Assembly: GCA_035550275.1 (NCBI GenBank)
Contig: DASZPQ010000023.1
Span: 13,603-77,602, forward strand
Reading direction: 5' to 3'
DNA from: Gaiellaceae bacterium
Lineage (GTDB): Bacteria; Actinomycetota; Thermoleophilia; Gaiellales; Gaiellaceae
Length of the DNA: 64,000 bases
In this document: piece after piece, positions 9,528 through 43,488 of the stretch
How positions within the stretch are numbered: the first letter of the stretch is position 1
How the letters are laid out: the number at the start of each line of letters is the position of its first letter
Position numbers and translations under genes: made by a program
The notes under the pieces: generated by a model
What the model saw: only the letters and a program-made list of their open reading frames with translations
Database searches by the model: none
What the model was told of the DNA's origin: nothing

Positions 9528-10978
9528 CGCGGGCGACCGTTCGGCTGGCCCGCCGGGCTCAGCGTCGATCGCTGGAGCACGACCGTGACGACTGCCCCCT
9601 CGGCCGGGCGGCTGTGGATCGAGAGGGTGGCGTGCTGGTGCTCGAGGAGGCGCTTCGCGATCGTGAGGCCGAGCCCGGCGCCGCTGTCGATGCTGCCGGC
9701 TGCCGGGGCTCCCCGGATGCCGGGCTCGAAGATGTGCGGAAGGAGATCAGGGTCGATTCCCGGCCCGCGGTCCTGGACGGTGAGCTGGACCGTCGACCCC
9801 TCGGCGACCCAGCTGAGCTGGACAGGGGCGCCCGTAGGGCTGTAGCGAAGCGCGTTGTCGAGGATGTTGGTGAGCGCGCGCTTGATGCGGTCGCGATCGA
9901 CGACGATTGCGAGCCCCTGATCGCCTTCGAGGTCGAAGGTGTTGGCCCCGACGCGGCTTGTGTGCTCGAGACCGGCTGTGACCTCCCGGAGGAGATCGGC
10001 GACGGCGACGGCTTCGAGCGTGGGCGCGGGCTGTGTGTAGTCGTCCCGGGTGTAGGCGAAGAGGTTGCCGATCAGCCGTTCGAGCGCGTCTGCTCTCGCT
10101 TCGGCCCGCTCGAGATGGACGGCCGGGTCGCCCAGCCCGGCACCGATCGCCTGCAAGTGCCCGCGTAAGGCGAAGAGCGGCGTCCGCAGGTCGTGGGCGA
10201 TGCTCGTGACGAGGAACCGTCTCGCCTCGTCAGCTTCGGCGCGCCGCTGCGCCGTCTCGCCGAGCGCGTCTGTCATGCCCTCGACGGCCTGGGCGATATT
10301 CGCGATCTCGCCGATCCGGCTGCGTGGGACAGTGATCGTCAAGTCGCCGCCGGCGACCTTGTCGACCTGGGCGCTCAGCCTGGCGAGCGGCGCGACCATC
10401 CAGCGTCCGGCGAGCCAGACCGCGACGGCCAAGCCGGCAAGGAGCACAAGCACGCCGGTGACGAGCGCGACGAGCGCTCGGGTCGAGCGTGAGGGCGGCC
10501 GGTAGTAGAGGTCGGTGACGAGCGTGGCCTGCGATTTCGACGTTCCGGCTGCAATCAGCCGTTGGGAATCGCTCCAGGACGCAGTCGTCTCGGCCGGCGC
10601 GTTCGCAGGGGTCGTGTCCGGCTGCGCGGCCTTTGCCTTGCGGGCCTGTTCCTTCTCGAGGGGCTGGCCGACGTTCAGTGCCGGGCTCAGATAGATCTGG
10701 TTCTTCCCGGGCGGCGTGGTCGTGACCAGGACCAGCTGCGCGAGCATGTCGAGCCGGTTGAGCAAGCGTGTGAACCCCTGGGCCGAGGCCGGCTCCTGCA
10801 GGTCGGTGCGATGGGAGGTGACGTAGGCAAGCGCAGTATTCAGCCGGTGCCGGGTACCCGCCTGCTGGTGGTTGCGTTCGATCAGCCAGGCCGCGCCGCC
10901 CGCCAGTGTCGGTAGCACCAGCAAGAGGAGGACGGTGCCGAGGATGAAGGTGCGGATGCGGATCGGCGGCTGTCTCAT
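9524..10978 (-). CDS. Sensor histidine kinase (module A; TM, about 150-aa extracytoplasmic loop, TM, HAMP, HisKA, HATPase)
   Basis: H-box SIAHDLRTPL, N/G boxes (NALRYSP, DRGPGI, GAGLGLTIAK). The start overlaps the RR stop (ATGA). Confidence 0.9.
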   Translation of the reverse strand: MRQPPIRIRTFILGTVLLLLVLPTLAGGAAWLIERNHQQAGTRHRLNTALAYVTSHRTDLQEPASAQGFTRLLNRLDMLAQLVLVTTTPPGKNQIYLSPALNVGQPLEKEQARKAKAAQPDTTPANAPAETTASWSDSQRLIAAGTSKSQATLVTDLYYRPPSRSTRALVALVTGVLVLLAGLAVAVWLAGRWMVAPLARLSAQVDKVAGGDLTITVPRSRIGEIANIAQAVEGMTDALGETAQRRAEADEARRFLVTSIAHDLRTPLFALRGHLQAIGAGLGDPAVHLERAEARADALERLIGNLFAYTRDDYTQPAPTLEAVAVADLLREVTAGLEHTSRVGANTFDLEGDQGLAIVVDRDRIKRALTNILDNALRYSPTGAPVQLSWVAEGSTVQLTVQDRGPGIDPDLLPHIFEPGIRGAPAAGSIDSGAGLGLTIAKRLLEHQHATLSIHSRPAEGAVVTVVLQRSTLSPAGQPNGRPR

Positions 10979-11673
10979 CGGTTGCCCGGATCGAGGCGGT
11001 AGCCGGCGCCCCAGACCGTGATGATGTAGCGCGGCGTCGACGGGTCGGGCTCGATCTTCTGCCGCAGGCGGCCGATGTACACCGCCACCGCACTCCGGTC
11101 GCCGAACGAGCCCCAGACCAGCTCGAATAGCTGGTCGCGGCTGAGCACCTGCCGCGGATGCTCGACCAGCGCGCGCAGCAGCGCGAACTCGCGGGCCGAG
11201 AGGTCAACTTGGCGTCCGTCGCTGCTCACCTCGTGCGCGGCCAGGTCGACCTCGAGCTCCCCGAAGCGAAGCCTCTGGAGCCCGCCGGTCGCGGAGGCGC
11301 GGCGTAGGACCGCCTTGACGCGGGCGACCACCTCTGCCGGGGTCGCCGACTTGACGATGTAGTCGTCGCCGCCGAGCCCGAGCCCGCGGATCTTGTCCGC
11401 GTCGCTGTCGCGGGCGCTCAGGAAGAGCACCGGCACGCTCGAGTCGCGGCGCAGCCGGCGGCAGATCTCGAAGCCCGACTCGTCGGGAAGCATCACGTCC
11501 AGCAGCACGAGATCGGGCCGCGCCCGCTCAAAGTGCTCCGTCGTCGCGCGCCCGGTGGCCGCATGACTCACCCGGTAGCCCTCCGCCTCCAGGAAATCGC
11601 GCATCAGCTCCGCGATCTGCTCGTCGTCCTCGACGACCAGGATCGACGTTCCCGTGCTCTCATCGCCGTTCAC
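10975..11673 (-). CDS. OmpR/PhoB-family response regulator (module A)
   Basis: REC domain ILVVEDD...LVLLDVMLPDESG...KS, plus a winged-helix C-terminus LSAREFALLRALVEHPRQVLSRDQL...TVWGAGYRL. Confidence 0.9.
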   Translation of the reverse strand: MNGDESTGTSILVVEDDEQIAELMRDFLEAEGYRVSHAATGRATTEHFERARPDLVLLDVMLPDESGFEICRRLRRDSSVPVLFLSARDSDADKIRGLGLGGDDYIVKSATPAEVVARVKAVLRRASATGGLQRLRFGELEVDLAAHEVSSDGRQVDLSAREFALLRALVEHPRQVLSRDQLFELVWGSFGDRSAVAVYIGRLRQKIEPDPSTPRYIITVWGAGYRLDPGNR

Positions 11674-11722
11674 ACGAGTCAGTGTCGCCCAATTCGGCCC
11701 GCCCAGGGCCGCCCGAAGCCGC

Positions 11723-11761
11723 TTTCATCGACTTTTCATGGTCGGCTCGCCTGCCTGTTAT
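11723..11761 (+). promoter_or_regulatory. Phased direct repeat TTTCAT-N5-TTTCAT (11-bp spacing) plus -10-like TGTTAT 16 nt downstream; candidate OmpR-type RR site and promoter of lipoprotein gene P1
   Basis: TTTCAT at 11723 and 11734; TGTTAT at 11756. A near-identical block lies upstream of P3 (12928..12966). Located in the divergent region between the RR gene and P1. Confidence 0.4.
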
Positions 11762-11784
11762 CGGGCCGGGCGATCATCGGCGGC

Positions 11785-12357
11785 ATGAGGCCCGTCCTCC
11801 TCGCTTTTGGATCCCCCGCGCTGGCCGGTCTGTCGCTGCTCGTGTCCGCATGCGGCAGCTCATCCGGGGCTTCGGTGGCGCAAGGTAGTTCGACCACGAT
11901 TGCGACGAAGACGAGCGGCACCACCAGCACCGGCGTGACCGGGTCGGCGCAGCAGCAGGCGGTGGCCTCGGCGCTGGCCTATTCGCGCTGCATGCGTTCG
12001 CACGGCGTGCCGGCGTTTCCCGACCCCGACTCGCAGGGGCAGTATCCGCCGTTCCACTCCGATTCTGCTGCGTCCAAGCAGGAGTCGGTGTCGGCTCAGG
12101 AGACCTGCAAGTCCTTGCTCTCGAAGGGCGGGAGCGCAGGGAGGCCGCAGGATCGTCAGCAGAAGCTCGCCTTCGCCTTGCAGGTCGCCGGCTGCCTACG
12201 CGCTCACGGATACCCCACCTTCCCCGACCCGACGGCCTCGAGCGAGGGAACGAGCCAGAATCTCGGCGGCGCCGGCATCGACTCGAGCTCGCCCCAGTTT
12301 CAGGCGGCGGAGCTCGCGTGTGAGAGCCAGGCGCAGAAGACGCTCGGTCTGCGATGA
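11785..12357 (+). CDS. CxR-PDP repeat lipoprotein P1 (uncharacterised family)
   Basis: Signal peptide plus lipobox LLVSAC and an S/T-rich linker. Two half-domains: YSRCMRSHGVPAFPDPD...C and VAGCLRAHGYPTFPDPT...SPQFQAAELAC. The long N-terminal extension of ORF 11533 is rejected. Confidence 0.8.
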   Translation: MRPVLLAFGSPALAGLSLLVSACGSSSGASVAQGSSTTIATKTSGTTSTGVTGSAQQQAVASALAYSRCMRSHGVPAFPDPDSQGQYPPFHSDSAASKQESVSAQETCKSLLSKGGSAGRPQDRQQKLAFALQVAGCLRAHGYPTFPDPTASSEGTSQNLGGAGIDSSSPQFQAAELACESQAQKTLGLR

Positions 12358-12884
12358 GACCGGCGTCCGCCGCCGTGCGCGCCCTCGTCGGCGCCGCCAC
12401 CCTTGTCCTCGCGGCCGCCGCATGCGGCGGCCATCCTTCGGACGGTCACGTGGCGCAGCTCGCCTCGACCACAACGAGCACTTCCACCCGCGCAGGAGCG
12501 CTGCCGGGGGTGGATGGAGCGATCGCCTTCTCCCGCTGTATGCGCTCCCACGGGGTTCCGGCGTATCCCGACCCGGGAAGCGATGGAACCCTTCCCAAGA
12601 AGACCCCGCAGCAACTCGGGGTCGGAAGCTCGGAGTTCCAGCACGCCCAGGGAGCCTGTATCCACCTGGTTCCGAACGGCGGCCGGCCCACGCAGATCCA
12701 GGTGCAGCAGTACCGGAGCACCATGTTGATCTACGCACACTGCATCCGCTCGCACGGAGTCGCGAACTTCCCCGACCCGGACAGCCGGGGGCACCTCGAC
12801 ATCGGGCCGGGTACCGCGGTCGATCTGAACAGCCCTCAGTTCCAAGCGGCATACCAGGCCTGCAAGTCCAGGTTGTCTCCGTGA
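12354..12884 (+). CDS. CxR-PDP repeat lipoprotein P2
   Basis: Lipobox LAAAAC. Motifs FSRCMRSHGVPAYPDPG and YAHCIRSHGVANFPDPD. ATGA overlap with the P1 stop. Confidence 0.8.
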   Translation: MRPASAAVRALVGAATLVLAAAACGGHPSDGHVAQLASTTTSTSTRAGALPGVDGAIAFSRCMRSHGVPAYPDPGSDGTLPKKTPQQLGVGSSEFQHAQGACIHLVPNGGRPTQIQVQQYRSTMLIYAHCIRSHGVANFPDPDSRGHLDIGPGTAVDLNSPQFQAAYQACKSRLSP

Positions 12885-12927
12885 GGGCCGAATCACAGCG
12901 GCAGCCCCCGCCGGCGTGTCCCATGGC

Positions 12928-12966
12928 TTTCATCGACTTTTCATCGCCAGCTCCTGCCGGTGTTAT
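12928..12966 (+). promoter_or_regulatory. Second copy of TTTCAT-N5-TTTCAT plus TGTTAT block, upstream of P3
   Basis: GCTTTCATCGACTTTTCAT is identical over 19 nt to 11721..11739. TGTTAT at 12961 shows the same 16-nt spacing. Confidence 0.4.
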
Positions 12967-12988
12967 CCGATCCGGCGATCATCGAAGC

Positions 12989-13561
12989 GTGAACCTCTTC
13001 CGAGACCACTGGCGTCACGCGCTCCTCGCTTCTGCGCTGGCCGGGCTCGTCGGCCTGTCGCTGCTCGTATCTGGATGCGGCGGTTCGACCGCCGGCGGCG
13101 TGGCGCAACTCGGCTCGGCCACGACCGCGGCAAAGACCAATTCCGCGAACGCACCGACGACGAGCTCGCAGGCGACGAACGTCCAGAAGATGCTCGCGTT
13201 CTCCCGCTGCGTGCGACAGCACGGCGTGCCGAACTTCCCCGATCCGGACAGCCAGGGGCAGCTCCCCGCGCTGACCCAGCAGGATCTCGGGGTGACGAAG
13301 CAGACCTCGCTGGCGGCTCAGCAAGCCTGTGAGAGCACGCTCGCGCGCGGTGGCAGCACAGCGACGCCCCAGCAGCGGCAGGAGAAGCTTGCGTTCGGCT
13401 TGAAGGTCGCTCAGTGCCTGCGCGCGCACGGCTACCCAATGTTCCCCGACCCGACCGGCTCGAGCCAGGCGCTGCCTCCGGGAATCGATCCGAGCTCACC
13501 GCAGTTCGAGGCGGCGCAGACGACCTGCGAGAAGCAAGAGCAGCCGGCCAGCCTTCGATGA
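12989..13561 (+). CDS. CxR-PDP repeat lipoprotein P3
   Basis: GTG start at 12989, in frame within ORF 12320..13561. Lipobox LLVSGC. Motifs FSRCVRQHGVPNFPDPD and VAQCLRAHGYPMFPDPT. Closest paralog of P1. Confidence 0.75.
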   Translation: MNLFRDHWRHALLASALAGLVGLSLLVSGCGGSTAGGVAQLGSATTAAKTNSANAPTTSSQATNVQKMLAFSRCVRQHGVPNFPDPDSQGQLPALTQQDLGVTKQTSLAAQQACESTLARGGSTATPQQRQEKLAFGLKVAQCLRAHGYPMFPDPTGSSQALPPGIDPSSPQFEAAQTTCEKQEQPASLR

Positions 13562-14112
13562 GCGCTCCGACCGTTACCAGAGCCCAGGCCGGGGCCGCGA
13601 GCCTTGCCGCAGCCGGGCTGGTCCTGCTCGTCACCGCGTGCGGCGGCTCCTCCTCGAAGCCCCCGGCAGCGTCGGCGCCACAGAACCCTGCGGTCGCGTT
13701 CGCCACCTGCATGCGCTCCCACGAGGTGCCGAACTGGCCGGATCCGAACAGCAGCGGCGTGTTCGACAAGTCCAAGCTCACGCCCGAGCAATTGGGGGCC
13801 AGCGCCTCACGAGTCCAGGCGGCCCAGGCTGTCTGCCAGCACCTGCTCCCGACTCGCAGCGCGCCGAGCGCCGCCCAGGTGCAACAGGTCAGAGCGCAGG
13901 CGCTGAGCTACTCCCAGTGCGTGCGCAGCCACGGAGTCCCGAACTTCCCCGATCCCGCCAGCGACGGCCGTATTCCCGACCCCGCCAGCGTGGGAATCAA
14001 CCAAGGCTCGCCGAAGTTCGAGGCCGCAAACCAGGCTTGCGGGACCTACCGGCCGCCTTACATGCCCTCGAACGCCGCGTACAACGCGTATGCCAGGGCC
14101 CACGGCGGCTGA
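13558..14112 (+). CDS. CxR-PDP repeat lipoprotein P4
   Basis: Lipobox LLVTAC. Motifs FATCMRSHEVPNWPDPN and YSQCVRSHGVPNFPDPA. ATGA overlap with the P3 stop. Confidence 0.8.
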   Translation: MSAPTVTRAQAGAASLAAAGLVLLVTACGGSSSKPPAASAPQNPAVAFATCMRSHEVPNWPDPNSSGVFDKSKLTPEQLGASASRVQAAQAVCQHLLPTRSAPSAAQVQQVRAQALSYSQCVRSHGVPNFPDPASDGRIPDPASVGINQGSPKFEAANQACGTYRPPYMPSNAAYNAYARAHGG

Positions 14113-14118
14113 TGCAAC

Positions 14119-14134
14119 TTTAGGTTCGTTTCAG
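14119..14134 (+). promoter_or_regulatory. Possible half-site pair TTTAGG-N4-TTTCAG upstream of the module B response regulator (candidate autoregulation site)
   Basis: Related to the TTTAGA/TTTCAT half-sites seen at 16158-16199. A CACAAT -10-like hexamer lies at 14145, just before ATG 14157. The spacing is 10 rather than 11 bp, so support is weak. Confidence 0.25.
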
Positions 14135-14156
14135 AGACGTCGCGCACAATCCTCTG

Positions 14157-14825
14157 ATGGCGATTCTCGTAGTCGATGACGACCGGAGGCTGCGGAACGC
14201 GCTTCGGCGTGTCCTTGTCTCGAACGGGTTCGAGGTCGAGATCGCGGGCGACGGCGACGAAGCTCTCGCGCGCTTGCGCGCAGGAGGATTTGACGCGATG
14301 GTCCTTGACGTGATGATGCCCGGGAGCGACGGAGTCGAGGTCTGCGAGCAGCTGCGCGCGGCGGGGAACCAGCTGCCGGTGCTGATGTTGACCGCGCGCG
14401 ATGCAGTTCGTGACCGGGTCGCGGGTCTCGAGGCCGGCGCCGACGACTACCTCGTGAAGCCCTTTGCGAACGAGGAGCTCGTGGCACGGGTACGCGCGCT
14501 GTTGCGCCGGTCCGGTGGCGGCACCGAGCTGATGGTCTTCGCCGATCTCGAGCTCGACCTCCTGACCCGCGATGCGCGCCGAGGTGAGCGGGAGGTCGAG
14601 CTTTCCCCGATTGAATTCGAGCTGCTCGAGTTCTTCCTGCGCCACCCTCGTCAGGTGCTCTCGCGTGGGCTGATCTACGAGCGGGTGTGGGGTCATGACG
14701 CGTCGCTGTCGTCGAACTCGCTCGACGTGTTTGTCGGCCATCTGCGGCGCAAGCTGGAAGCCGACGGTGAGCGGAGGTTGATCCACACCGTGCGCGGTGT
14801 CGGCTTCACGTTGAGGGAACGATGA
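14157..14825 (+). CDS. OmpR/PhoB-family response regulator (module B)
   Basis: REC domain ILVVDDD...MVLDVMMPGSDG...KP, plus a winged-helix C-terminus SPIEFELLEFFLRHPRQVLSR...TVRGVGFTL. Confidence 0.9.
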   Translation: MAILVVDDDRRLRNALRRVLVSNGFEVEIAGDGDEALARLRAGGFDAMVLDVMMPGSDGVEVCEQLRAAGNQLPVLMLTARDAVRDRVAGLEAGADDYLVKPFANEELVARVRALLRRSGGGTELMVFADLELDLLTRDARRGEREVELSPIEFELLEFFLRHPRQVLSRGLIYERVWGHDASLSSNSLDVFVGHLRRKLEADGERRLIHTVRGVGFTLRER

Positions 14826-16174
14826 GCTTTCGGCTCCGCTTGACGGTGCTCGCCTCGCTGGCGGTCGCAGTCGCGATCGTCGGCGCATCCTTTGCCGTCT
14901 ACTACACAGACCGGCATGAGCTCATCGCGCAGGTCGACAACGACCTCAGCTCGAGCCTCACCTTGCCGCGACTGAACGCGGTCTTCTCCGATCGGATCGG
15001 CGATGTCACGCGCGTGTCCGGTCGCGCGGAATCGGGACAGTCGAACGTGGGCAAGTTGCTGGCCGGGCCTGTGGCCGCGAACGGATTCCGGGTTGTGTTG
15101 CCGCGCTCCTCGACCGCGGTCCAGGTGCAGATCTTCAAGCCCAAGCCCGGTAGCTCGCCGAAGGCGATCTCGCAGTCGACGTTCAGCACCTCAACCATCG
15201 ACGGCGTGCCGACCCGGACGCTCTCGATCAGCTCGAAAGCCCAGGTCGTGACGATCTCGCGCTCGCTCCTCGACGTCGATCACAACCTGTCGCGCTTGAG
15301 ATGGCTGCTTATCTTCATCTCGCTCGGGGGCATCGGCACGGCGGCGATTCTCGGTGCGCTGGTTTCGGGTCGAGCCGTCGCGCCGCTTCGCCGCCTGACC
15401 GAGACGACGGAGCGAATCGTCGAGACAGGCGATCTCAGCCAGCGAACGGGGCGGCGGGGACGCGACGAGATCAGCCGCCTCTCCACCCGGCTCGACGAGC
15501 TGCTTGCCAGCCTCGAGGCGTCGCTGCGGACTCAGCGGCAGCTCGTCGCCGACGCGTCGCATGAGCTGCGCACCCCGATCGCGACGCTTCGGGCGAACAT
15601 CGGGCTGCTGGCTCACCCTGGAACGCTCGGTCAGAGCGAGCGCTCCGAGCTGATCGAGGACGTTCAGGAGGAGCTCGAGTCGATGACCGCGCTGGTCGGG
15701 GAGCTCGTCGAGCTTGCGCGCGGGGAGGAGCCCGACGTCGTGCCGACGGAATTCAGGCTCGACGAGGTCGTCCAAGGAGCGGTCGACCGCGCCGCGAGAC
15801 GCGCGCCCGATCTCTCGTTCCAAACCAGGCTCGAGCCCTCGCTGATCACCGGCGTGCCCGAACGGGTCGAACGGGCCGTCACAAACCTGCTCGACAACGC
15901 GAGGAAATGGAGCCCGCCCAGCGAGACCGTCGATGTGGCCGTCCATGACGGCGTCGTCGAGGTACGCGACCGAGGGCCGGGAATCGCAGCCGAGGACGCG
16001 CCGCTCGTCTTCAACCGCTTCTACCGGGCGAAGGCTGCCCGCGGCATGCCTGGGGCCGGCCTCGGGCTGTCGATCGTGAAGCAGATCGCCGATGCCCACG
16101 GCGGGAGCGTGAGCATCGACCGGGCCGCTGACGGAGGCGCGATCCTGCGACTCCAGCTTTCATCGACTCCTTAG
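14822..16174 (+). CDS. Sensor histidine kinase (module B; about 130-aa extracytoplasmic loop, HAMP, HisKA, HATPase)
   Basis: H-box DASHELRTPIATLRAN, NLLDNARKWSP, DRGPGI, GAGLGLSIVK. ATGA overlap with the RR gene. Confidence 0.9.
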   Translation: MSFRLRLTVLASLAVAVAIVGASFAVYYTDRHELIAQVDNDLSSSLTLPRLNAVFSDRIGDVTRVSGRAESGQSNVGKLLAGPVAANGFRVVLPRSSTAVQVQIFKPKPGSSPKAISQSTFSTSTIDGVPTRTLSISSKAQVVTISRSLLDVDHNLSRLRWLLIFISLGGIGTAAILGALVSGRAVAPLRRLTETTERIVETGDLSQRTGRRGRDEISRLSTRLDELLASLEASLRTQRQLVADASHELRTPIATLRANIGLLAHPGTLGQSERSELIEDVQEELESMTALVGELVELARGEEPDVVPTEFRLDEVVQGAVDRAARRAPDLSFQTRLEPSLITGVPERVERAVTNLLDNARKWSPPSETVDVAVHDGVVEVRDRGPGIAAEDAPLVFNRFYRAKAARGMPGAGLGLSIVKQIADAHGGSVSIDRAADGGAILRLQLSSTP

Positions 16175-16199
16175 AGGCACTTTAGAGCCGTTTTAGAGC
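16158..16199 (+). promoter_or_regulatory. Four 11-bp-phased half-sites (TTTCAT / CTTAGA / TTTAGA / TTTAGA), candidate OmpR-type RR binding array upstream of P5
   Basis: TTAGAG at 16171, 16182 and 16193. TTTAGAGCCGT is perfectly tandem-duplicated. The array begins inside the last codons of the HK gene. A homologous block lies at 20608..20648. Confidence 0.45.
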
Positions 16200-16213
16200 C
16201 GTCGGCTTTCCTG

Positions 16214-16774
16214 TTGAGAGTGGCCCAAACGCTTGTCCTCGCTGTCCTGGTGATCCTGCTCGCTGCTGCCGCTGCAGGCTGCGGCGGCTCGAAGCCGGCC
16301 CCGGTCGCGAGCCTCGGAACGACGGTGACGACCGGCGCGGGCTCCCCGACAGCGCCGGCGGCGAGCAGAGCTGCGCTCGCCGCATGCTTCGGCTCACACG
16401 GATTCCCGGCCTCGGTCGGTTCAGCGAGCACGTCGAGCCAGACCCTCTCCGTGTTTGGAGTCCAGATCAGCGGAAACGTCGATCCGGGCTCGGCGCAGTT
16501 TCAGGCGGCGCTGCAGGCCTGCCGCAAGTTCATACCCGGCGGCGGGCCGCCTGCGCTGACGCCGGCGCAGGAGGCCGAGGCGGCAAAGGCGATGCTGAGC
16601 TTCGCCGCCTGTATGCGCAAAGACGGCGTGCCGACCTTCCCGGACCCGAACGGCCAGGGACGGTTCCCCCTCGGCAGCATCGGCAAGCTCGATCCGAGCG
16701 CGCCGCTCTTCCAGAGCGCCTTCAAGAGCTGCCAGCCGCTCGAGCCGAAGGTCGGGCCGAGGATCGTGTTCTGA
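16214..16774 (+). CDS. CxR-PDP repeat lipoprotein P5 (first half-domain degenerate)
   Basis: Lipobox AAAGC. The first half is degenerate (LAACFGSHGFPASVG) and the second is canonical (FAACMRKDGVPTFPDPN...SAPLFQSAFKSC). Start is TTG 16214 or GTG 16220. Confidence 0.75.
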   Translation: MRVAQTLVLAVLVILLAAAAAGCGGSKPAPVASLGTTVTTGAGSPTAPAASRAALAACFGSHGFPASVGSASTSSQTLSVFGVQISGNVDPGSAQFQAALQACRKFIPGGGPPALTPAQEAEAAKAMLSFAACMRKDGVPTFPDPNGQGRFPLGSIGKLDPSAPLFQSAFKSCQPLEPKVGPRIVF

Positions 16775-17436
16775 TGCGGATGATCGCCTCCCACCACGTG
16801 CGCGGGGCCGCGCTGGCCGCCGGCGTGGCGGCGCTCGGGCTCGCTGCAGCGGGCTGCGGCGGCGGCGCGAAGACGCCCGCGGTCGCGAACCTCGGCACCA
16901 CGTCGACACCAAGCACCACCACCAGCCCGGCGGCGGGCGGCGCCGTCGGGGACACGGGCGCGCAGGCCAGTAGCAGTGGAGGCGGCGGCACGCTGAGGAT
17001 GGTGGGCGGGAGCGTCCAGGAGCTGACGAAGCTCTCCGCCTGCATGCGCAAGAACGGCGTGCCGAACTTCCCGGACCCGAACGCACAGGGCGAGATCTCG
17101 ATCACCGGCATCGACCCGGGATCGGCGAGCTTCCAGCAGGCTCAGCAGGCTTGCCGGAAGCTGCTGCCGAACGGCGGGACGCCAAGTCCGGCGCAGCAGG
17201 CGCAGGCCCGCGCCCAGGCGCTCGCCTTCTCGGCCTGCATGCGCAAGAACGGTGTGCCGAGCTTCCCCGATCCGCAATTCGGGAGCGGAGGCCGCATCTC
17301 GATCAAGATCGGCCGCGGCCAGGGCATCGACCCGAGCTTGCCGCAGTTCCAAGCCGCCCAGAAGGCGTGTCAGAAGGACATCCCAGGCAAGTTCGGTGCC
17401 CCGGTCGGGGGCGCGGCCAAGTCGAGCGACGGGTAG
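16774..17436 (+). CDS. CxR-PDP repeat lipoprotein P6
   Basis: ATG at 16774 overlaps the P5 stop by 1 nt (TGATG). Lipobox LAAAGC. Motifs LSACMRKNGVPNFPDPN and FSACMRKNGVPSFPDPQ. The upstream part of ORF 16384 is rejected. Confidence 0.8.
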   Translation: MRMIASHHVRGAALAAGVAALGLAAAGCGGGAKTPAVANLGTTSTPSTTTSPAAGGAVGDTGAQASSSGGGGTLRMVGGSVQELTKLSACMRKNGVPNFPDPNAQGEISITGIDPGSASFQQAQQACRKLLPNGGTPSPAQQAQARAQALAFSACMRKNGVPSFPDPQFGSGGRISIKIGRGQGIDPSLPQFQAAQKACQKDIPGKFGAPVGGAAKSSDG

Positions 17437-17453
17437 GAGGAGAGCGCCTGGAG

Positions 17454-18113
17454 CTAGGCGCCCGGCACGACGAGCCCGGATTCGTAGGCGACGACCACGG
17501 CTTGCGCGCGGTCGCGAAGGCCGAGCTTGCGCAGAACATGGCTGACGTGCGTCTTCACCGTCTCATTGCTGAGCACCAGGTGCTGCGCGATTTCCTGGTT
17601 CGAGAGCCCACTCGCGATCAGGCCGAGAATCTCGAGCTCGCGCCGGGTGAGCGCGTCGAGCGCTTCGGGGCGGGTGCGCTGCGGCGGGCGGAGGCGGGCG
17701 AACTCCGCGATCAGGCGGCGCGTGATCACCGGCGCCAGGAGCGCGTCTCCGGCGGCGACGACCCGCACCGCTTCGAAGAGCGACTCGGGGGGAGCGTCCT
17801 TGAGCAGAAACCCACTGGCGCCGGCCTGGAGCGCGTCGTAGACGTATTCGTCCAGGTCGAAGGTCGTCAGGACGAGGACCCGCGGCCCGGCCCCGCCTGA
17901 GGCGCAAATCTCACGGGTGGCGGCGATGCCGTCGAGCACCGGCATCCGGATATCCATCAGCACGATGTCGGGCCGGTGCTCCTGGCTTTGCTGCACGGCC
18001 TCTTCGCCGTCCGCTGCGGTTGCGACGACGGTGAAGTCGGCCTGGGTCTCGAGCAGGGCGGCGAAGCCCGCGCGCACGGCCTGCTGGTCGTCGGCGATCA
18101 GGGCGCGGATCAC
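17454..18113 (-). CDS. NarL/FixJ-family response regulator (REC + LuxR HTH)
   Basis: IRALIADDQ...IVLMDIRMPVLDG and LTRRELEILGLIASGLSNQEIAQHLVLSNETVKTHVSHVLRKLGL. Confidence 0.9.
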   Translation of the reverse strand: MIRALIADDQQAVRAGFAALLETQADFTVVATAADGEEAVQQSQEHRPDIVLMDIRMPVLDGIAATREICASGGAGPRVLVLTTFDLDEYVYDALQAGASGFLLKDAPPESLFEAVRVVAAGDALLAPVITRRLIAEFARLRPPQRTRPEALDALTRRELEILGLIASGLSNQEIAQHLVLSNETVKTHVSHVLRKLGLRDRAQAVVVAYESGLVVPGA

Positions 18114-19279
18114 GGCGTGGGCTCGCTGATCGGGAGCGTGATCTCCACCTCGAAGCCGCCCTCTTCGGCGGGCCCCGAGGCGAAGGTGCCGCTCGCGAGC
18201 GCCGCGCGCTCGCGCATTCCCATCAGGCCGTGCCCCTCGACCGGCTCGCCGCCCGGTGCGCCGGGGCCGTAGTCACGCACGCGCAGCTGGAGCATCTCGT
18301 CGCGATAGGAGACCTCGACATCGACGTTTGCGCCCGGAGCGTGGCGTCGTGCGTTCGTCAGCGCCTCCTGGATGATCCGGTAGGCGGCCAGATCGATGCT
18401 CAGAGGCAAGCGCACGACCTTCCCCTGCCGGATCAGGCGGACCGGCGTTCCGGAAGCTTCGGCCTTGGCGATCAAGTCGTCGAGATCGTCGAGCCCGGGC
18501 TGCGGCGCGCGGTCGGCTTCGCCGGCCGTGTCCTCCCGAAGGACTCCCAGTAGGCGGCGCGTCTCGGTGAGCGCCTCGCGAGCGGTCGAGGCGATTGCCT
18601 CGAGGCGGCCGCCGGCTTCCGAGGAGAGCTCCGGCGAGGTGCGCCGCGCGACCTCGCTCTCGATCGCGATCACGGACAGATGATGCGCCACGATGTCGTG
18701 GAGCTCGCGCGCGATGCGGGCTCGCTCTTCCATCACCGTCCGAGCGCGGGTGCTCTCGGCCATCGCCTCCTGGGTCGCGTCAAGCTCTGCGACCGCGAGC
18801 CCGCGTTTGCGGAGCGACTCGCCGACGATCAGGGCGCCGGCCAGGAAGAGCAGGGTCGTGTCGCTCGTGAAGCCGGCATTGGCGCCATCGAACCGCGGCG
18901 TGGCGAGGACCAGGAACGGAATCAGGAGCGGAGCGGCAAAGAGCAGGCCGCGCTGGATCACGAGCCGGACGAACAGGAAGAGCATCACGCAGAACGGCAT
19001 GATGCTGAGCGGTGTGCGGTGTGCCACGAGCACGACGGTGACCACGGTGGCTGCCAGCGCGGCGAGAGTCGGCCAGCGCCGAGCCAGTAGGAGCGCCGCG
19101 ACTGCAAGCACGTTCAAGGCGATCGTGATCTCGAGGACCTTCGCGGACACGTCCTTTGCGAGCAGCGCCTCGAGAACCGTCGCCAGCACGAGCACGCTCG
19201 TCAGGACGACTCGTCCGGGGCGGCCGGAAAGCAGACGCCGCAGCTCGACGAGCAGCGGCTCGATGTCTGACGTGTCCAC
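18110..19279 (-). CDS. Sensor histidine kinase, HisKA_3 (NarL-partner) type, multi-TM N-terminus
   Basis: RIARELHDIVAHHLSVI H-box, EALTNARRHAP, and GHGLMGMRERAA at the C-terminus. The stop overlaps the RR start. Confidence 0.85.
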   Translation of the reverse strand: MDTSDIEPLLVELRRLLSGRPGRVVLTSVLVLATVLEALLAKDVSAKVLEITIALNVLAVAALLLARRWPTLAALAATVVTVVLVAHRTPLSIMPFCVMLFLFVRLVIQRGLLFAAPLLIPFLVLATPRFDGANAGFTSDTTLLFLAGALIVGESLRKRGLAVAELDATQEAMAESTRARTVMEERARIARELHDIVAHHLSVIAIESEVARRTSPELSSEAGGRLEAIASTAREALTETRRLLGVLREDTAGEADRAPQPGLDDLDDLIAKAEASGTPVRLIRQGKVVRLPLSIDLAAYRIIQEALTNARRHAPGANVDVEVSYRDEMLQLRVRDYGPGAPGGEPVEGHGLMGMRERAALASGTFASGPAEEGGFEVEITLPISEPTP

Positions 19280-19445
19280 GGCCCCATTGTCGTCGCTCTC
19301 TCCGTCGCGGCGCGTCGCGCGGGCAAACGATCTTCGCCCTCACTCCACAGGGTGAGAAGCGGCCGAAACTCACCGCCCGGCGGCGGTCGAAAGACGGCGC
19401 TTCCGCGCGACGCGGGCAATCGATCTCGTTTCTACCGTTCTGGCC

Positions 19446-19991
19446 ATGCATCGCCGCCGCTCATTCCTCGTTGCCTCGGCCGTTCCCGCCGCTGTGTTGG
19501 CACTGCTTTCCGCCGGATGTGGTGGCAATTCGCCGGCGGCGGGCGTCAGCACCACGTCGTCGACGTCCTCCACCACGACGAACGGCCCGCTCGCCTTCGC
19601 GCGCTGCATGCGCGCCCACGGGCTGTCGAAATGGCCCGACCCGACGAGTAGCGGGGTCTTCGACAAGGCGACGCTGCGCCAAACCGGGTATAGCGAGTCC
19701 CAGGTCAGGGCGGTCGAGGACGGCGCCTGCGCTCAGCTGCTTGGCGGCGCGTCGCCTCAACGGCCGACGATCACCGCCGCCGACCGGGCCGACTACCTCG
19801 CGGCAGCCGCCTGCATGCGAACGCACGGGTTCGCAGGCTTTCCCGATCCGACGTTCCTGAACGGCGGCGTCCAGACCAACGTCCCGGCGACCATCGACCA
19901 GGACTCCTCCCGGTTCAAAGCTGCGGCGACGACCTGCACGAAGCTGATACCGGCGGGTCTTCCCTACAGCAGACCGAGCGGTTCGGGCTAA
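19446..19991 (+). CDS. CxR-PDP repeat lipoprotein P7
   Basis: Lipobox LLSAGC. Motifs FARCMRAHGLSKWPDPT (shares WPDPxSSGVFDK with P4) and AAACMRTHGFAGFPDPT. Confidence 0.8.
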   Translation: MHRRRSFLVASAVPAAVLALLSAGCGGNSPAAGVSTTSSTSSTTTNGPLAFARCMRAHGLSKWPDPTSSGVFDKATLRQTGYSESQVRAVEDGACAQLLGGASPQRPTITAADRADYLAAAACMRTHGFAGFPDPTFLNGGVQTNVPATIDQDSSRFKAAATTCTKLIPAGLPYSRPSGSG

Positions 19992-20000
19992 TCGCCCGGT

Positions 20001-20588
20001 GTGATGCGAAGCCGCGTACTCATCCTCGGTTCCGTCGTCCCGCTGGCCGTGTTGTCGCTGCTCGCGGCCGGTTGCGGCGGCGGTGGCGGCTCCGCTCCGG
20101 GCATTGCGAGCGTGGCCTCTTCCACCACCGCGACGACCACGCCGGCGCAGAACGGGCTGCTTGCCTTCTCCGCCTGCATGCGCTCCAACGGGATGCCGAA
20201 CTTCCCCGATCCTCAGCACTTCGTCGGAGGAAACGTGAAGCTGACGCTGCACCAGCTCGGGACCGGCAATCCGAAGTTCCAGGCCGCCATCAGCGCCTGC
20301 AATCACCTGCTCCCCTCGAACGGCGGCGGAAGCTCGGACACGGCGCAGGAGCAGCGCACGAAGATCGCGGACGGGCTCTCGTTTGCCAGATGCATGCGCA
20401 GCCATGGCGTTGCCCGTTTCCCCGATCCGAGCGCGCAGGGCGACTTGACGGTCGAGATGGTTCAGGCACAGGGGATCGACGTCCATTCCCCGGCAGTCCT
20501 GCATGCGATCCAGACCTGCCTGCCGGCGTCGCACGGTGCGCTCACGCCGGCGAAGGTCAGAGAGGCGCTCAGCAATGCAGGCGGCTGA
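20001..20588 (+). CDS. CxR-PDP repeat lipoprotein P8
   Basis: Lipobox LLAAGC. Motifs FSACMRSNGMPNFPDPQ and FARCMRSHGVARFPDPS. Lies 9 nt after the P7 stop. Confidence 0.8.
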   Translation: MMRSRVLILGSVVPLAVLSLLAAGCGGGGGSAPGIASVASSTTATTTPAQNGLLAFSACMRSNGMPNFPDPQHFVGGNVKLTLHQLGTGNPKFQAAISACNHLLPSNGGGSSDTAQEQRTKIADGLSFARCMRSHGVARFPDPSAQGDLTVEMVQAQGIDVHSPAVLHAIQTCLPASHGALTPAKVREALSNAGG

Positions 20589-20806: not shown

Positions 20807-22366
20807 GTGTCTGAGACCGAGGACACCCTTGTCTCGGCGCCGCAGCGGCTGACGCCGCCGGCTCCGCGCCGCCTGCAGTTGTCGAGGCGGTCGCTGATCG
20901 CGCTCGGCGCGGGCGTCGCCGTGGTCGTGGCGGTCGTGATCGCATTCGCAAGCGGCGCGTTCGGTGGCGGCAGCGCCGCACCGGGGTCGGCAGACAACCC
21001 GTATCCGACGTCGCTCCAGACGGTGACGCGGCAGTCGTTGACCCAGCAGACGCAGGTGAGCGCCACGCTCGGCTACGCAGACCCAGCGACGATCGTCGCG
21101 CCTGCCGGGACGACACCCCAAGATCTCGCGCAGGCGAAGCAGGCTGCGACGACCGCCCAGACCCAGCTCCAGACCGCACAGGCGGCATTGACGGCGGACA
21201 AGGCGACACTGGATCAGGCGAACGCGAGCCTGTCCGCGGACCGGGCGAAGCTGGCCGTCGACTGCGGCGGCGACAACGCCGGCGAAAGCGCTGCGAGCCC
21301 TTCCGCGTCCGGCTCCGGGAACGGCTCCGGCTCCGGTGCGTGCGCGACGGACTCGCAGTCCGTCTCGGCCGACCGCCAGAGCGTCACGCAGGCAGCGGCG
21401 AAAGTCGCGAGCGACCAGCAGGCCACCACGTCGGCGACGACGGCGCTCGCGACCGCCGCAGCGAGCCTCACACAGGCGGAGTCGTCGGGCACGGTCTACG
21501 GGCAGAGCTCGACCTACACCGAGCTCCCGGCGGTCGGCGCGATCGTGAAGCGGGGCCAGACCCTCTACGAGATCAGCGGCGCACCGGTTGTCGTGCTCTA
21601 CGGATCGGTGGCGCCCTGGAGGGCGTTCATGTCCGGCATGTCGCCGGGGCAGGACGTCGCGGAGCTGAACTCGAACTTGCGCGCGCTCGGCTATGGCTCA
21701 GGTCTGAGCGGCGACGCGTTCACCTCTGAGACCGTGTCGGCGATCGACGCCTTCCAGTCCGCACGCGGGCTCAGCCAGACCGGGCAGCTACTGCTTGGCT
21801 CGGTGGTGTTCGAGCCGGGGCCGGTGCGGGTCACCACCGTGACGCCGACGCTCGGGGCGACCGTCCAGGCCGGCCCGGTGCTCGGCATCACCTCGCTCGT
21901 CCGCCAGGTGACGATCGCGCTCGATGCGGCCCAGCAATCCGACCTCAAGGTCGGCGACCCGGTCACGATCACGCTGCCCGACAACAGCACGACGCCGGGG
22001 AAGGTTTCCTACGTCGGCACCGTCGCCACCGTCCCATCGAGCTCCGACCAGGGTGGCGGTGGCTCGAGCTCGCCGACGATCGAGGTCGACGTCACGCCAA
22101 CCGACCCGGCGGCGACCGGCCATCTCGACCAGGCGCCGGTCAACGTCTCGATCACAACCGGCAGCGTCCAGAACGCACTGACCGTGCCGGTCAACGCGCT
22201 GCTTGCGCTCGCCTCCGGCGGCTACGCCGTCGAGGTGGCGGGAGCGGGCGGCGTCCACCACTTGGTCGGGGTCCAGCTCGGCCTCTTCGACGACGCGAAC
22301 GGATTGGTTCAGGTCACCGGCACCAGCCTGACCGTCGGCACGCGCGTGGTGGTGCCGAGCACATGA
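20807..22366 (+). CDS. Periplasmic-adaptor (HlyD/MFP-like) protein with inserted peptidoglycan-binding domain (module B)
   Basis: N-terminal TM segment [20 protein letters not shown]-rich coiled coil. PG_binding_1-like segment [49 protein letters not shown]-terminal beta-barrel segments typical of MFP adaptors. ATGA overlap with the ABC ATPase gene. Confidence 0.85.
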
Positions 22367-23124
22367 CCGCCGTCTCCGCCACCGACTCGACCCTGACCAT
22401 GCCGGCGCCGGCGAGCGATCGCGGCCCGGAGACGGTGCTCGAGCTCGATGACGTGACCAAGCTCTACGGCAGCGAGCCGCCGGTGATCGCGCTCGACGGC
22501 GTCAGCTTCAGCGTCCACCGCGGCGAGCTGCTCGCGATCGTCGGCCCGTCCGGCTCGGGCAAGTCGACGCTCCTGCATCTGATGGGCACGCTCGACCGGC
22601 CAAGCTCCGGAACCGTTCGAATCACCGGCCTCGACGTCGCCGGCCTCACCGACCGGGAGCTGGCCGCGCTGCGTGCGACGCGGATCGGGTTCGTCTTCCA
22701 GCAGTTCTTCCTCGCCGAGCACGCAACGGCATTGGAGAACGTCGCGGACGGGCTGCTCTATACGGGCGTTCCGGTCGCGGAGCGGCGCGAGCAGGCAGCC
22801 GGCGTGCTTGCCTCGGTCGGGCTTGGCGACCGCCTTAAAGCGCGGCCGACCCAGCTCTCCGGCGGCGAGCGGCAGCGGGTTGCGATCGCTCGTGCCCTCG
22901 TCGGGCGGAAGGCGATCGTGCTCGCCGACGAGCCGACAGGAAACCTCGACAGCACCACTGGCGCCGCGATCCTCGCCCTCCTGCACGAGCTGCACGCGGG
23001 CGGCGCGACGATTGTCGTGATCACCCACGATCGCGACCTCGCAGCCGGCCTGCCCCGTCAGGTCGAGATGCTCGACGGACGGATCGTCACCGACACCGCC
23101 AATCAGAAAGGCGGGCTCGGATGA
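22363..23124 (+). CDS. ABC transporter ATP-binding protein, MacB/LolD type (module B)
   Basis: Walker [10 protein letters not shown], signature [15 protein letters not shown], Walker [14 protein letters not shown]-loop ITHD. Confidence 0.95.
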
Positions 23125-24998: not shown

Positions 24999-26204
24999 AT
25001 GAGCACGACCGGGTCGCTGACACCCGTGAAGCTGCGGCCGGGCGACCTGGCCCGCATCGCCAGCGTCGGGCTCCGCACGCGCCGCATGCGCGCCGCGCTC
25101 TCGGCACTCGGGATCGCGATCGGCGTCGCCGCGATCGTTGCCGTGCTCGGTCTCTCGGCGTCCTCGCGGTCAGGCTTGCTGGCCGAGATCGACCGGCTGG
25201 GCACGAACCTGCTCACCGTCACCACCGGCCAGACGCTCTTCGGAGCGACGGCCGAGCTGCCGCTTGCCTCGCCAGGGATGATCGCCCGCATCGGGCCGGT
25301 CACACAGGTCGCGGATACCGGCTCGACCAGCGTGAACGTCTACCGCAGCCCGCTGATCCCGTCTGTGAACACGAATGCCCTTCAGGTGCAGGCGGCGACG
25401 CTGAACCTGCTTCCCGCGGTCGGCTCGACCGTCGCCCGGGGCAGCTATCTCAACACTGCCACCGCGACCGAGCCTGTGTGCGTGCTCGGCGCTCAGGCCG
25501 CGCAGCTACTCGGTATCGACCGCGTCTACCCGGGCGAGCGCGTTTGGCTCGGCGGCATGTGGTTCTACGTCACCGGCATCCTCACCTCCGCCACGCTTGC
25601 TCCCGAGATCGACAGCAGCGTGCTCGTCGGCTTCCCCGCCGCCGACAAGTACCTCGGCCTCGACGGTCATCCGACGACGATCTACGTTCGCGCCGTCACC
25701 ACCCAGACCGCCGCGGTGCAGGCCGTCCTCGCTTCGACCGCCAACCCGGAATCTCCGAATGAGGTGAACGTGAGCCAGCCGTCGGCTGCGCTTGTCGCGC
25801 GCGCGGACGCGCAGGGGGCGCTGAACGGCCTCTTCCTGGGGCTCGGCGCCGTCTCGCTGCTCGTCGGCGCGGTCGGCGTTGCCAACATCATGATCATCTC
25901 CGTCCTCGAGCGCCGCAGTGAAATCGGCCTTCGACGGGCGTTGGGCGCGACCAAAGGGAACATCCGCGCCCAGTTCCTGAGCGAGGCGATCCTGCTGGCG
26001 CTGCTCGGCGGCGCGGCCGGCGTCGGCTTCGGAGTCCTCGCAACCGCCGTCTATGCGCACACGAAGCACTGGGCGGTCGTGATCCCGACGCTCGCCTGGG
26101 CGGGCGGCCTCGGCGCCGCCTTCGCAATCGGCGCCGTTGCCGGCCTCCTGCCTGCGATCCGCGCAGCGCGTCTCTCACCGACAGACGCCCTTCGCACGGT
26201 CTGA
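24999..26204 (+). CDS. ABC transporter permease, MacB/FtsX type (module B)
   Basis: N-terminal TM, then a periplasmic MacB_PCD-like domain of about 230 aa, then FtsX helices VGVANIMIISVLERRSEIGLRRALGATKGNIRAQFLSEA. Confidence 0.9.
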   Translation: MSTTGSLTPVKLRPGDLARIASVGLRTRRMRAALSALGIAIGVAAIVAVLGLSASSRSGLLAEIDRLGTNLLTVTTGQTLFGATAELPLASPGMIARIGPVTQVADTGSTSVNVYRSPLIPSVNTNALQVQAATLNLLPAVGSTVARGSYLNTATATEPVCVLGAQAAQLLGIDRVYPGERVWLGGMWFYVTGILTSATLAPEIDSSVLVGFPAADKYLGLDGHPTTIYVRAVTTQTAAVQAVLASTANPESPNEVNVSQPSAALVARADAQGALNGLFLGLGAVSLLVGAVGVANIMIISVLERRSEIGLRRALGATKGNIRAQFLSEAILLALLGGAAGVGFGVLATAVYAHTKHWAVVIPTLAWAGGLGAAFAIGAVAGLLPAIRAARLSPTDALRTV

Positions 26205-43128: not shown

Positions 43129-43488
43129 GTGTCTGCCGGGGAAGTTGACGAGTATCTGCGTCGGCTCGAGGAGCCGAAACGCGGGACGCTTCAGGAGCTG
43201 CGGCGGATCATCCTCGAGATCGTCCCCGACGCAGACGAGGGGATCTCCTACCGGGTCCCAGCATTCCGGATGCGGGGCAAGGTCATCGCAGGCTTCGCGG
43301 CGTTTCAGAACCACCTGAGCTACCTGCCGTTCAGCGGCTCGGTGCTCCCGAGGCTGGCCGACGAGCTCGAGGGCTACACGAGGACGAAGAGCTCCTTGCA
43401 TTTTCCAGTCGATCGTCCGTTGCCGAAGCCGCTCGTCGAGAAGCTGATCGCCACGCGTCTCGCCGAGCTCTCAGCGCGCGGCAGGTAG
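43129..43488 (+). CDS. DUF1801 (YdhG-like) domain protein
   Basis: VDEYLRRLEEPKRGTLQELRRIILEIVPDADEGISYRVPAFRMRGKVIAGFAAFQNHLSYLPFSG matches the DUF1801 pattern. GTG 43129 is chosen within ORF 43075. Confidence 0.7.
   Translation: MSAGEVDEYLRRLEEPKRGTLQELRRIILEIVPDADEGISYRVPAFRMRGKVIAGFAAFQNHLSYLPFSGSVLPRLADELEGYTRTKSSLHFPVDRPLPKPLVEKLIATRLAELSARGR

Follow-up and report, generated by a model that had tools for sequence, protein, structure and literature searches.

An unnamed family of duplicated-domain lipoproteins encoded beside two-component systems and MacB-type pumps in Actinomycetota

Sensor-controlled ATP-binding cassette (ABC) modules are a main route of envelope-antibiotic tolerance in soil Gram-positive bacteria. 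The MacB family of ABC transporters does not carry substrates across the membrane; ATP hydrolysis is instead turned into mechanical work outside the cytoplasm (PMC5985334). Extracytoplasmic work of this kind is unusual, and the recognition of substrates by MacB-type machines is still unclear (PMC5985334). In the MacAB-like pumps of Gram-positive bacteria the presumed task of the adaptors is to remove compounds from the gap between membrane and wall, and precedents exist both for an extra subunit (YknW in YknWXYZ) and for a sensory complex (BceAB-BceS) (PMC5985334). A stretch of 64,000 nucleotides from a Gaiellaceae bacterium (positions 13,603 to 77,602 of contig DASZPQ010000023.1, assembly GCA_035550275.1), hereafter the window, has a G+C content of 68% and encodes nine small lipoproteins, P1 to P9 (Table 1), beside two-component systems and MacB-type pump genes. 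The type of system, consisting of a two-component system, a MacB-type pump and an accessory envelope protein, is already known. What is new is the protein family, probably with a new fold, and its conserved pump and two-component gene context.

The YknWXYZ system of Bacillus and Spr0693-0695 of Streptococcus pneumoniae resemble the systems of the window in combining a MacB-type ATPase and permease with an adaptor, which in the window is putatively of the membrane-fusion type, with no classical outer membrane. YknWXYZ also has, as here, an extra non-canonical membrane-associated subunit in its operon, and a function in the clearance of envelope-active toxins or peptides is presumed for both (PMC5985334). 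YknW is, however, a polytopic membrane protein unrelated in sequence, whereas the protein found here is a lipoprotein with a duplicated, Cys-containing helical domain and no known relatives. The adaptors of the window carry the domain PG_binding_1, unlike those of YknWXYZ-type pumps. In the BceRS-BceAB modules of Firmicutes a two-component system is likewise paired with an FtsX/MacB-family ABC transporter, and small-loop kinases sense via accessory proteins. Bce modules have neither adaptor nor lipoprotein, and BceB has 10 transmembrane (TM) helices and a large extracellular domain, in contrast to the 4-TM MacB layout with MacB_PCD of the permeases described here.

All nine genes are present on the + strand at the positions given in the preliminary description of the window, which was made from the letters and their open reading frames (ORFs). 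At least five of the nine (P1, P2, P3, P7 and P8) are hypothetical proteins in the NCBI annotation (VG652_02105, 02110, 02115, 02155, 02160). The lipobox of every one of the nine proteins satisfies the PROSITE-type rule, with its Cys at residues 21-30, and lipidation and cleavage by signal peptidase II are predicted from it. Each protein also has, as described before, a Ser/Thr/Gly-rich linker (16-54 residues) and exactly four Cys besides that of the lipobox. The mature core of about 120 amino acids is made of two tandem half-domains of about 55 amino acids each. With a hidden Markov model (HMM) of the half-domain, a six-frame translation of the window yields 18 domains and no more, two in each of these nine proteins. 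Profiles of the N-terminal and C-terminal halves align with each other over 54 columns (hhalign probability 99.7%, expect value E=4e-26), therefore the internal duplication is real. Core identity between paralogues is 28-60%. The identities of P3 to P1 (60%) and of P4 to P2 (50%) indicate that the P1-P2 pair was duplicated, its upstream region included, to give P3-P4. Comparison with the best orthologous loci gives dN/dS values of 0.13-0.68, which are rough, synonymous rates being hard to estimate at such G+C; on these ratios the genes appear to be under purifying selection and yet fairly fast-evolving.

The signature of the half-domain had been given as [FY]-[AS]-x-C-[MVLI]-R-x-[HND]-G-x3-[FWY]-P-D-P and attributed to 17 of the 18 copies. 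In this full form it fits only 12 of 18. The core of it, C-[MVLI]-R-x-[HND]-G-x3-[FWY]-P-D-P, fits 16, and the number 17 holds for the looser C-x-R-x-x-[GE]-x3-[FWY]-P-D-P. The first half-domain of P5 is degenerate (CFGSHGFPASVGS), and in the first half-domain of P4 the Gly of the motif is replaced by Glu. The context assigned to the second Cys, P-x-F-x-x-A-x3-C, was similarly too narrow, being found in only 8 of 18 halves, whereas A-x3-C is general. Across 566 domains conservation is nearly complete at Cys (98%), Arg (99%), Gly (98%), Phe (90%), Pro (99%), Asp (97%) and Pro (98%), and then at the Ala (93%) and Cys (99%) of the second motif. Base composition does not account for the pattern: the window has 17 loose motifs, all within the nine ORFs, versus none in any of 50 shuffles that preserve dinucleotides. 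The invariant residues seem to serve structure, as Cys pairs, in a probable Arg-Asp contact and in an aromatic-Pro-Asp-Pro turn. Between the conserved motifs, the loops differ in length and sequence. Together with the spread of paralogue identities and the dN/dS values, these variable loops fit a binding module with diverging specificity.

The family is an unnamed one, as had been anticipated. Neither Pfam-A 2025 nor NCBIfam 20.0 has a match to the domain region even at E<=1, the sole matches being weak and on signal-peptide or linker regions. Searches of PDB sequences by phmmer and with the half-domain profile gave nothing significant, and the family is absent from the full-text literature searched. 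It is nevertheless large, with full-length homologues in the thousands. At E<=0.001 a collection of 5.8 billion proteins contains 3,534 matches for P8 and 4,852 for the paralogue profile, and every match listed is hypothetical or unnamed and has no Pfam domain. Exhaustive HMMER searching of 1.84 billion cluster representatives with the half-domain profile identified 9,468 clusters, counted at 50% identity, at E<=0.001 and 5,168 at E<=1e-10. Nearly all of the top 150 representatives have two matched stretches and are around 190 residues long. A lipobox is present in 207 of 223 homologues and in 120 of these 150 representatives, some of the remainder carrying an N-terminal TM anchor. No fusion to another domain was found among the top cluster matches. 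A few metagenomic homologues (P0123-P0128) have four half-domains, which is two full units fused, and these have a plain signal peptide with no lipobox. Plasmids were searched by tblastn, and four actinomycete replicons matched in regions that are unannotated or labelled hypothetical.

For the distribution of the family, one genome per GTDB species was scanned for loci with a degenerate DNA pattern for C-x-R-x-x-G-x-P-x-F-P-D-P. A degenerate pattern was used because the alignment of the nine paralogues has no conserved stretch of 7-10 columns. At least 120 loci were found, and 119 of the 120 pattern-found loci listed have true family members by HMM. Among the loci listed, the family occurs across the Actinomycetota. 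Carriers in the Thermoleophilia are in the Solirubrobacterales, Gaiellales and Conexibacteraceae, and Acidimicrobiia also carry the family. Carriers are numerous in the Actinomycetes, with cultured representatives in Streptomyces, Micromonospora, Actinoplanes, Dactylosporangium, Spirillospora, Catellatospora, Rugosimonospora, Actinomadura, Actinotalea and Frankia. A few outliers are in Mesorhizobium loti LU (L118) and in metagenome-assembled genomes of Devosia (L004), Dormiibacterota (L049) and Chloroflexi (L096). There too the gene has two-component and/or pump neighbours of the usual kind, and the signal peptide of the Devosia copy is not that of a lipoprotein. These sporadic copies outside the Actinomycetota could be due to horizontal transfer or mis-binning.

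The structure of P2 was modelled with AlphaFold2 on an alignment of 125 sequences. The N-terminal 50 residues, which are the signal peptide and linker, are disordered in the model, while residues 51-176 are confidently modelled (block mean predicted local distance difference test, pLDDT, 86-98), the core scoring above 90. Helices span residues 52-65, 92-105, 114-133 and 161-173, and the long loops between them are confidently placed. The invariant Cys (residues 62, 102, 130 and 170 of P2) are each located 3-4 residues ahead of the C-terminus of a main helix, and in this model one disulfide per half, two per protein, is plausible. With a threshold of E<=0.001, Foldseek found no match to the P2 model in PDB (best E=1.2) or among the predicted viral structures of BFVD (best E=1.6), with TM-scores of 0.24 or less. 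On the model, the fold is probably new and has no solved counterpart.

Several biochemical roles were considered for the conserved residues. Neither CxxC nor CxxCH is present in the nine proteins, and a redox or haem role was rejected. A Dsb- or thioredoxin-like oxidoreductase was also set aside, the Cys pairs being 37-45 residues apart, the model all-helical and a Pfam match absent. Metal binding by the half-domains, either of Cu by a Cys/Met/His site or of Ca2+ or a lanthanide at the D-P-x-x-x-G loop, which resembles DxDxDG/EF-hand loops, is very improbable. The suggestion that C-M-R-x-H is a soft-metal (Cu) ligand set does not hold over the 566 domains, in which Met is found in 78% (otherwise Leu, Val or Ile, about 20%) and His in 83% (Asn in 13%). 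Cultured actinomycete members read CMRENG or CMRDNG and so lack the His of this motif, the Cys would probably be oxidised outside the cell, and the cores of the window proteins contain 1-4 Met and 0-6 His. The copper site was therefore rejected, its Met and His positions being variable and the cores poor in both residues. For Ca2+ or a lanthanide, the half-domain profile matches just two kinds of PDB entry, lanmodulin (E=0.41) and an EF-hand protein (E=0.29-0.41 overall), both where the D-P-x-x-x-G loop passes into the next helix, and 43% of 545 loops fit the relaxed pattern D-x-[DNSTEQ]-x-[DNSTEQ]-G-x-hydrophobic. As in lanmodulin and EF-hand proteins, a helix is followed by a D-P-x-x-x-G-x-hydrophobic loop, with the Pro at loop position 2 as in lanmodulin. 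These matches are, however, non-significant, with per-domain E of 75-88, and a Pfam search at E<=1 still gave no EF-hand model. The loop measures about 26 residues here, against 12 in those proteins, its ligand positions are mostly Thr, Ser or Gln, and the Glu of position 12 is missing. Strict DxDxDG is present in <1% of loops, D-x-[DN]-x-[DN]-G in 5%, and Glu or Asp at position 12 in 3%. An EF-hand- or lanmodulin-like calcium loop was rejected as weak on account of the non-significant matches and the missing ligand positions.

The genomic context of the family was determined by typing the ORFs at the loci with the window's own neighbouring proteins. A recurrent string of genes is seen, in which a histidine kinase and a response regulator gene point away from one or two family genes, and these are followed on their own strand by genes for an adaptor, an ABC ATPase and an FtsX-type permease. 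In 44 of 84 evaluable arrays the next gene downstream, on the same strand, is that of the adaptor, and a two-component system is directly upstream in 59 of 100, in 53 of them divergently. Of the 54 arrays evaluable on both sides, 20 have both neighbours, 11 the two-component system only, 5 the adaptor only, and 18 neither. Tandem arrays have 2-4 divergent family copies per kinase. The link to envelope-signalling and export genes, noted before for the window alone, is thus a conserved synteny, seen in 119 loci of different species and in independent gene calls. Public gene calls with Pfam labels at a metagenomic locus with a P8 orthologue (L122) give the order response regulator, histidine kinase, family gene, PG_binding_1 protein, ABC_tran, gene of no known type, MacB_PCD permease and HtrA-like protease. 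At a locus orthologous for adaptor B (L123), a divergent kinase and regulator are followed by Peptidase_S11, a family gene (171 amino acids, no Pfam match), the adaptor, ABC_tran and a MacB_PCD/FtsX permease, which is the order of module B of the window, and the junctions of this operon overlap throughout. Clustering of the untyped neighbours over the loci returned only antisense shadow ORFs of typed genes, a high-GC artefact, and no further conserved partner. These findings support the earlier proposal of a dedicated role outside the cytoplasm in connection with envelope-signalling and export genes.

Within the window there are two pump modules, and both conform to the recurrent gene order. 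Module A has the two-component system TCS3 on the - strand and then P7, P8, adaptor A, ATPase, a Big_1 repeat protein and permease on the + strand. In module B there are 4-nt overlaps at the carboxypeptidase/P9, P9/adaptor, adaptor/ATPase and ATPase/permease junctions. P1-P4, TCS2 and P5-P6 form a single + strand cluster with short gaps, divergent from TCS1 and with no pump between. Both permeases have MacB_PCD and FtsX above the Pfam cut-offs, and score far better with MacB (1.9e-29) than with LolC/E (1.9e-07). The ATPases have ABC_tran, and their best NCBIfam models are MacB (2.1e-66) and LolD (2.1e-65), these being partial-length matches below the equivalog cut-offs. The adaptors match adaptor models below cut-off in all cases (TIGR00999 2e-07, TIGR01730 6e-06, MacA 6e-03), and adaptor orthologues are named AcrA, HlyD or RND adaptor by some sources. 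Sequence and profile searches of PDB with the adaptor gave non-significant matches only, the best being to peptidoglycan-binding domains (E=0.26), and the AlphaFold2 model of adaptor B has a pLDDT of 51 on an alignment of 35 mostly 72%-identical sequences. Short-loop kinases often depend on accessory proteins. The kinase of TCS4 has an extracytoplasmic loop of about 30 amino acids, whereas those of TCS1 and TCS2 have about 135-140 amino acids of extracytoplasmic domain. Most family-linked kinases are short-looped, with a median of about 44 amino acids, by a crude hydropathy estimate, at loci with an adaptor.

The interpretation preferred here, held tentatively and judged to fall a little short of probable, is that the family supplies sensor-controlled, MacB-type pumps for envelope defence with an accessory subunit for binding or hand-over. 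The lipoproteins would be anchored in the membrane and extracytoplasmic, the mature part being a duplicated all-helical domain of about 120 amino acids, with each half comprising a helix, a long ordered loop and a helix, probably pinned by one disulfide. The two-component system would control an operon headed by the family gene or genes, after which come a membrane-fusion-type adaptor with a peptidoglycan-binding domain and the ATPase and permease of a MacB-type (type VII, mechanotransmission) ABC system. The lipoprotein, on the outer face of the membrane, would be the ligand-binding or hand-over subunit, capturing a noxious or envelope-derived molecule and presenting it to the adaptor and to the periplasmic domain of the MacB permease, and possibly also to the short-loop kinases. 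P1-P6, which have no pump of their own, would add specificity variants to the same regulon. It is the lipid anchor, the extracytoplasmic site, the first position in the operon, the frequent coupling and the multiple divergent copies that suggest an accessory subunit.

Several observations weigh against this interpretation. The role is inferred from gene neighbourhood, at loci that were themselves chosen by the family motif. Among the 54 arrays evaluable on both sides, the 18 that lack both neighbours and the 11 with the two-component system only indicate that the pump is not obligatory. Likewise, the 218 bp between P8 and adaptor A indicate that coupling is not universal. The putative membrane-fusion fold of the adaptor is assigned on below-cut-off HMM matches, the lengths of the kinase loops are crude estimates, and the structural-looking invariant residues (C, R, G, F-P-D-P, A, C) point to no binding site.

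The same gene neighbours are also consistent with a kinase co-sensor, in which the lipoprotein binds the stimulus or the small loop of the kinase and modulates signalling, the pump being another output of the regulon. This is somewhat unlikely. In its favour, a two-component link is present in 31 of the 54 fully evaluable arrays versus an adaptor link in 25, with 11 having the two-component system only, P1-P6 flank TCS1 and TCS2 with no pump between, and the kinases beside family genes are often short-looped. Co-sensors of this type reportedly include CseA with CseC, LpqB with MtrB and the secreted HbpS with SenS. Like the proteins of the window, these are extracytoplasmic, either lipoproteins or secreted, and encoded beside a two-component system (CseBC, MtrAB and SenSR), often divergently, and presumably controlled by it. 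They are unrelated in sequence and are single-copy partners, whereas the genes of the present family occur in tandem arrays and are usually at the head of a pump operon. Two to four divergent tandem copies per kinase would be unusual for a dedicated co-sensor, and the TCS1 and TCS2 kinases have extracytoplasmic domains of their own. Where an adaptor is present, moreover, the family gene belongs to the operon of the pump and not to that of the kinase, with frequent translational coupling to the adaptor.

A third possibility, which is quite improbable, is a stand-alone sequestering or immunity lipoprotein resembling LanI, which would bind an antimicrobial at the membrane surface while the ABC system acts as a parallel, independent defence. 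The trio of lipoprotein, ABC transporter and two-component system at one locus mirrors LanI/LanFEG/LanRK, in which a small lipoprotein is likewise anchored at the outer membrane surface of the cell. Lantibiotic resistance is discussed in the review of the MacB family (PMC5985334). Many copies have no pump, the paralogues have expanded and diverge fast, and the same operons contain a DD-carboxypeptidase (module B) and an HtrA-like protease (L122), which suggests cell-wall stress. LanFEG is, however, of ABC-2 type, whereas the pumps here are of MacB type, and there is no similarity in sequence or predicted fold to immunity proteins in the Pfam, NCBIfam, PDB and Foldseek searches. The first position in the operon and the 4-nt overlaps suggest joint assembly with the pump. 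The annotated genes of the window include no biosynthetic gene cluster, and no lantibiotic biosynthesis genes are among them.

It is very improbable that the lipoprotein is instead the cargo, extracted from the membrane or released to the surface through mechanotransmission by the MacB-type machine, as lipoproteins of Gram-negative bacteria are by LolCDE. LolCDE is a member of the MacB family (PMC5985334), the ATPases score with LolD nearly as with MacB, and the candidate is a lipoprotein encoded first in the operon. The permeases are, however, far closer to MacB than to LolC/E. Most carriers are monoderm actinobacteria with no outer membrane as a destination, many copies have no pump nearby, and some homologues have a TM anchor or a plain signal peptide rather than a lipobox.

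The accessory-subunit interpretation can be extended to a class of four-component MacB-type machines in Actinomycetota. In these a diversifying, disulfide-stabilised lipoprotein of new fold would be the specificity receptor, coupling ligand capture both to mechanotransmission expulsion, via a peptidoglycan-anchored adaptor, and to signalling by kinases without sensor domains. Taken as a whole this extension is unlikely. In a more radical version the machine would move the lipoprotein itself, which would be a Lol-like lipoprotein-handling step in monoderms.

Table 1. Location of the lipoprotein genes, neighbouring signalling and pump genes, and candidate operators in the window (aa, amino acids)
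Feature	Position	Strand	Description
P1	11785..12357	+	190 aa; lipobox Cys23; two half-domains; 4-nt overlap with P2
P2	12354..12884	+	176 aa; member modelled with AlphaFold2
P3	12989..13561	+	190 aa; core identity to P1 60%
P4	13558..14112	+	184 aa; core identity to P2 50%
P5	16214..16774	+	186 aa; half-domain 1 without the R..G...FPDP motif
P6	16774..17436	+	220 aa; long Gly/Ser/Thr linker
P7	19446..19991	+	181 aa
P8	20001..20588	+	195 aa; orthologues of 66-84% identity common in soil metagenomes
P9	46410..46934	+	174 aa; ATGA overlap with upstream carboxypeptidase gene, GTGA overlap with downstream adaptor gene
TCS1	9524..11673	-	OmpR-type regulator 10975-11673, HAMP/HisKA kinase 9524-10978; divergent from P1-P4
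TCS2	14157..16174	+	OmpR-type regulator 14157-14825, kinase 14822-16174; between P4 and P5
TCS3	17454..19279	-	HisKA_3 multi-TM kinase 18110-19279, NarL/LuxR-type regulator 17454-18113; divergent from P7-P8
TCS4	43471..45253	-	OmpR-type regulator 44558-45253, kinase 43471-44565; divergent from module B operon
Adaptor A	20807..22366	+	N-terminal TM helix, coiled-coil-like (QTQLQ...) segment, PG_binding_1, weak C-terminal CzcB-type match
Module A ATPase	22363..23124	+	MacB/LolD-type ABC ATPase
Module A permease	24999..26204	+	MacB-type; MacB_PCD and FtsX
S11 D-Ala-D-Ala carboxypeptidase	45328..46413	+	First gene of module B operon
Adaptor B	46931..48013	+	TM helix, PG_binding_1; C-terminus below cut-off to RND_mfp, CzcB and MacA models
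Module B ATPase	48010..48708	+	MacB-type ABC ATPase
Module B permease	48705..49928	+	MacB_PCD/FtsX permease
Direct repeat CTTTCATCGA/CTTTTCAT	11722..11739	+	Upstream of P1; identical copy 12927-12944 upstream of P3; putative operator
Direct repeat, 11-bp period, CTTTAGAGCCG/TTTTAGAGC	16180..16199	+	Upstream of P5; putative operator
Direct repeat TATCG-N6-TATCG	45275..45296 (approximate)	+	Divergent promoter region between TCS4 regulator and module B operon

Direct repeats with a period of 10-11 bp precede P1, P3, P5, adaptor A, the TCS2 regulator and the module B operon, and look like putative operators of OmpR-type regulators. The sequence CTTTCATCGACTTTTCAT has two exact copies, upstream of P1 and of P3, against 0.02 expected. 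The repeat upstream of P5, CTTTAGAGCCGTTTTAGAGC, recurs with two mismatches upstream of adaptor A (20630-20649) and in degenerate form upstream of the TCS2 regulator, at approximately 14118-14139 (within 14113-14156). TATCG-N6-TATCG is also present in the orthologous metagenomic locus L123, at approximately 5340-5365, and in L122 there is an analogous repeat, AAGCTCTCAGC/AACCTCTCAGC, between the kinase and the family gene. These repeats suggest that pump A and the pump-less copies P1-P6 are in one regulon. If they are indeed operators, pump A would be part of the TCS2 regulon, which would explain why P1-P6 have no pump of their own. A different repeat is found between the NarL-type kinase gene and P7, where a 23-nt direct repeat (CGCG.CG.CGCGGGCAA[A/T]CGATCT) at 19311-19333 and 19404-19426 has 83% identity between copies 93 bp apart and has a perfect inverted repeat of 12 nt on its flanks; a regulator may bind here. 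A scan of 11400-21000 for consensus promoters and terminators gave results no better than shuffles.

The family is a genetically tractable candidate for the missing recognition or accessory subunit of Gram-positive MacB-type machines. Carriers include antibiotic-producing genera, Streptomyces, Micromonospora and Actinoplanes. Substrate recognition by these machines is made testable in cultured actinomycetes, the function itself being inferred from context. A curated domain family is merited, and would re-annotate thousands of hypothetical proteins.

Additional genes are associated with the pump operons. The interval between the ATPase and permease of module A (23121-24998) has extra coding sequence that includes a 443-amino-acid Gly/Ala/Thr-rich protein with Big_1 and other Ig-like repeats, and at the same position in L122 there is a gene for 327 amino acids with no Pfam match. 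The HtrA-like protease of L122 (Trypsin_2 and PDZ; 14644-15849) is directly after the P8-type pump operon, and an HMA-domain protein and a sigma/anti-sigma pair are close by.

Elsewhere in the window there are two ORFs with good codon statistics and no database match, one of 778 amino acids (51375-53711; Pfam and NCBIfam) and one of 287 amino acids (2175-3038; Pfam, the sole database searched). Signalling genes are unusually dense between 9524 and 45253, with at least seven histidine kinases, including a hybrid with three receiver domains (32843-34870). A 917-amino-acid AAA/LuxR regulator is encoded at 6774-9527, and there are EAL proteins at 28034-29251, with a receiver domain, and at 41844-43124, with HDOD. 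The region 37289-41785 encodes a protein of 1,498 amino acids with five Lamin Tail Domain repeats (PF00932, E=1e-60).

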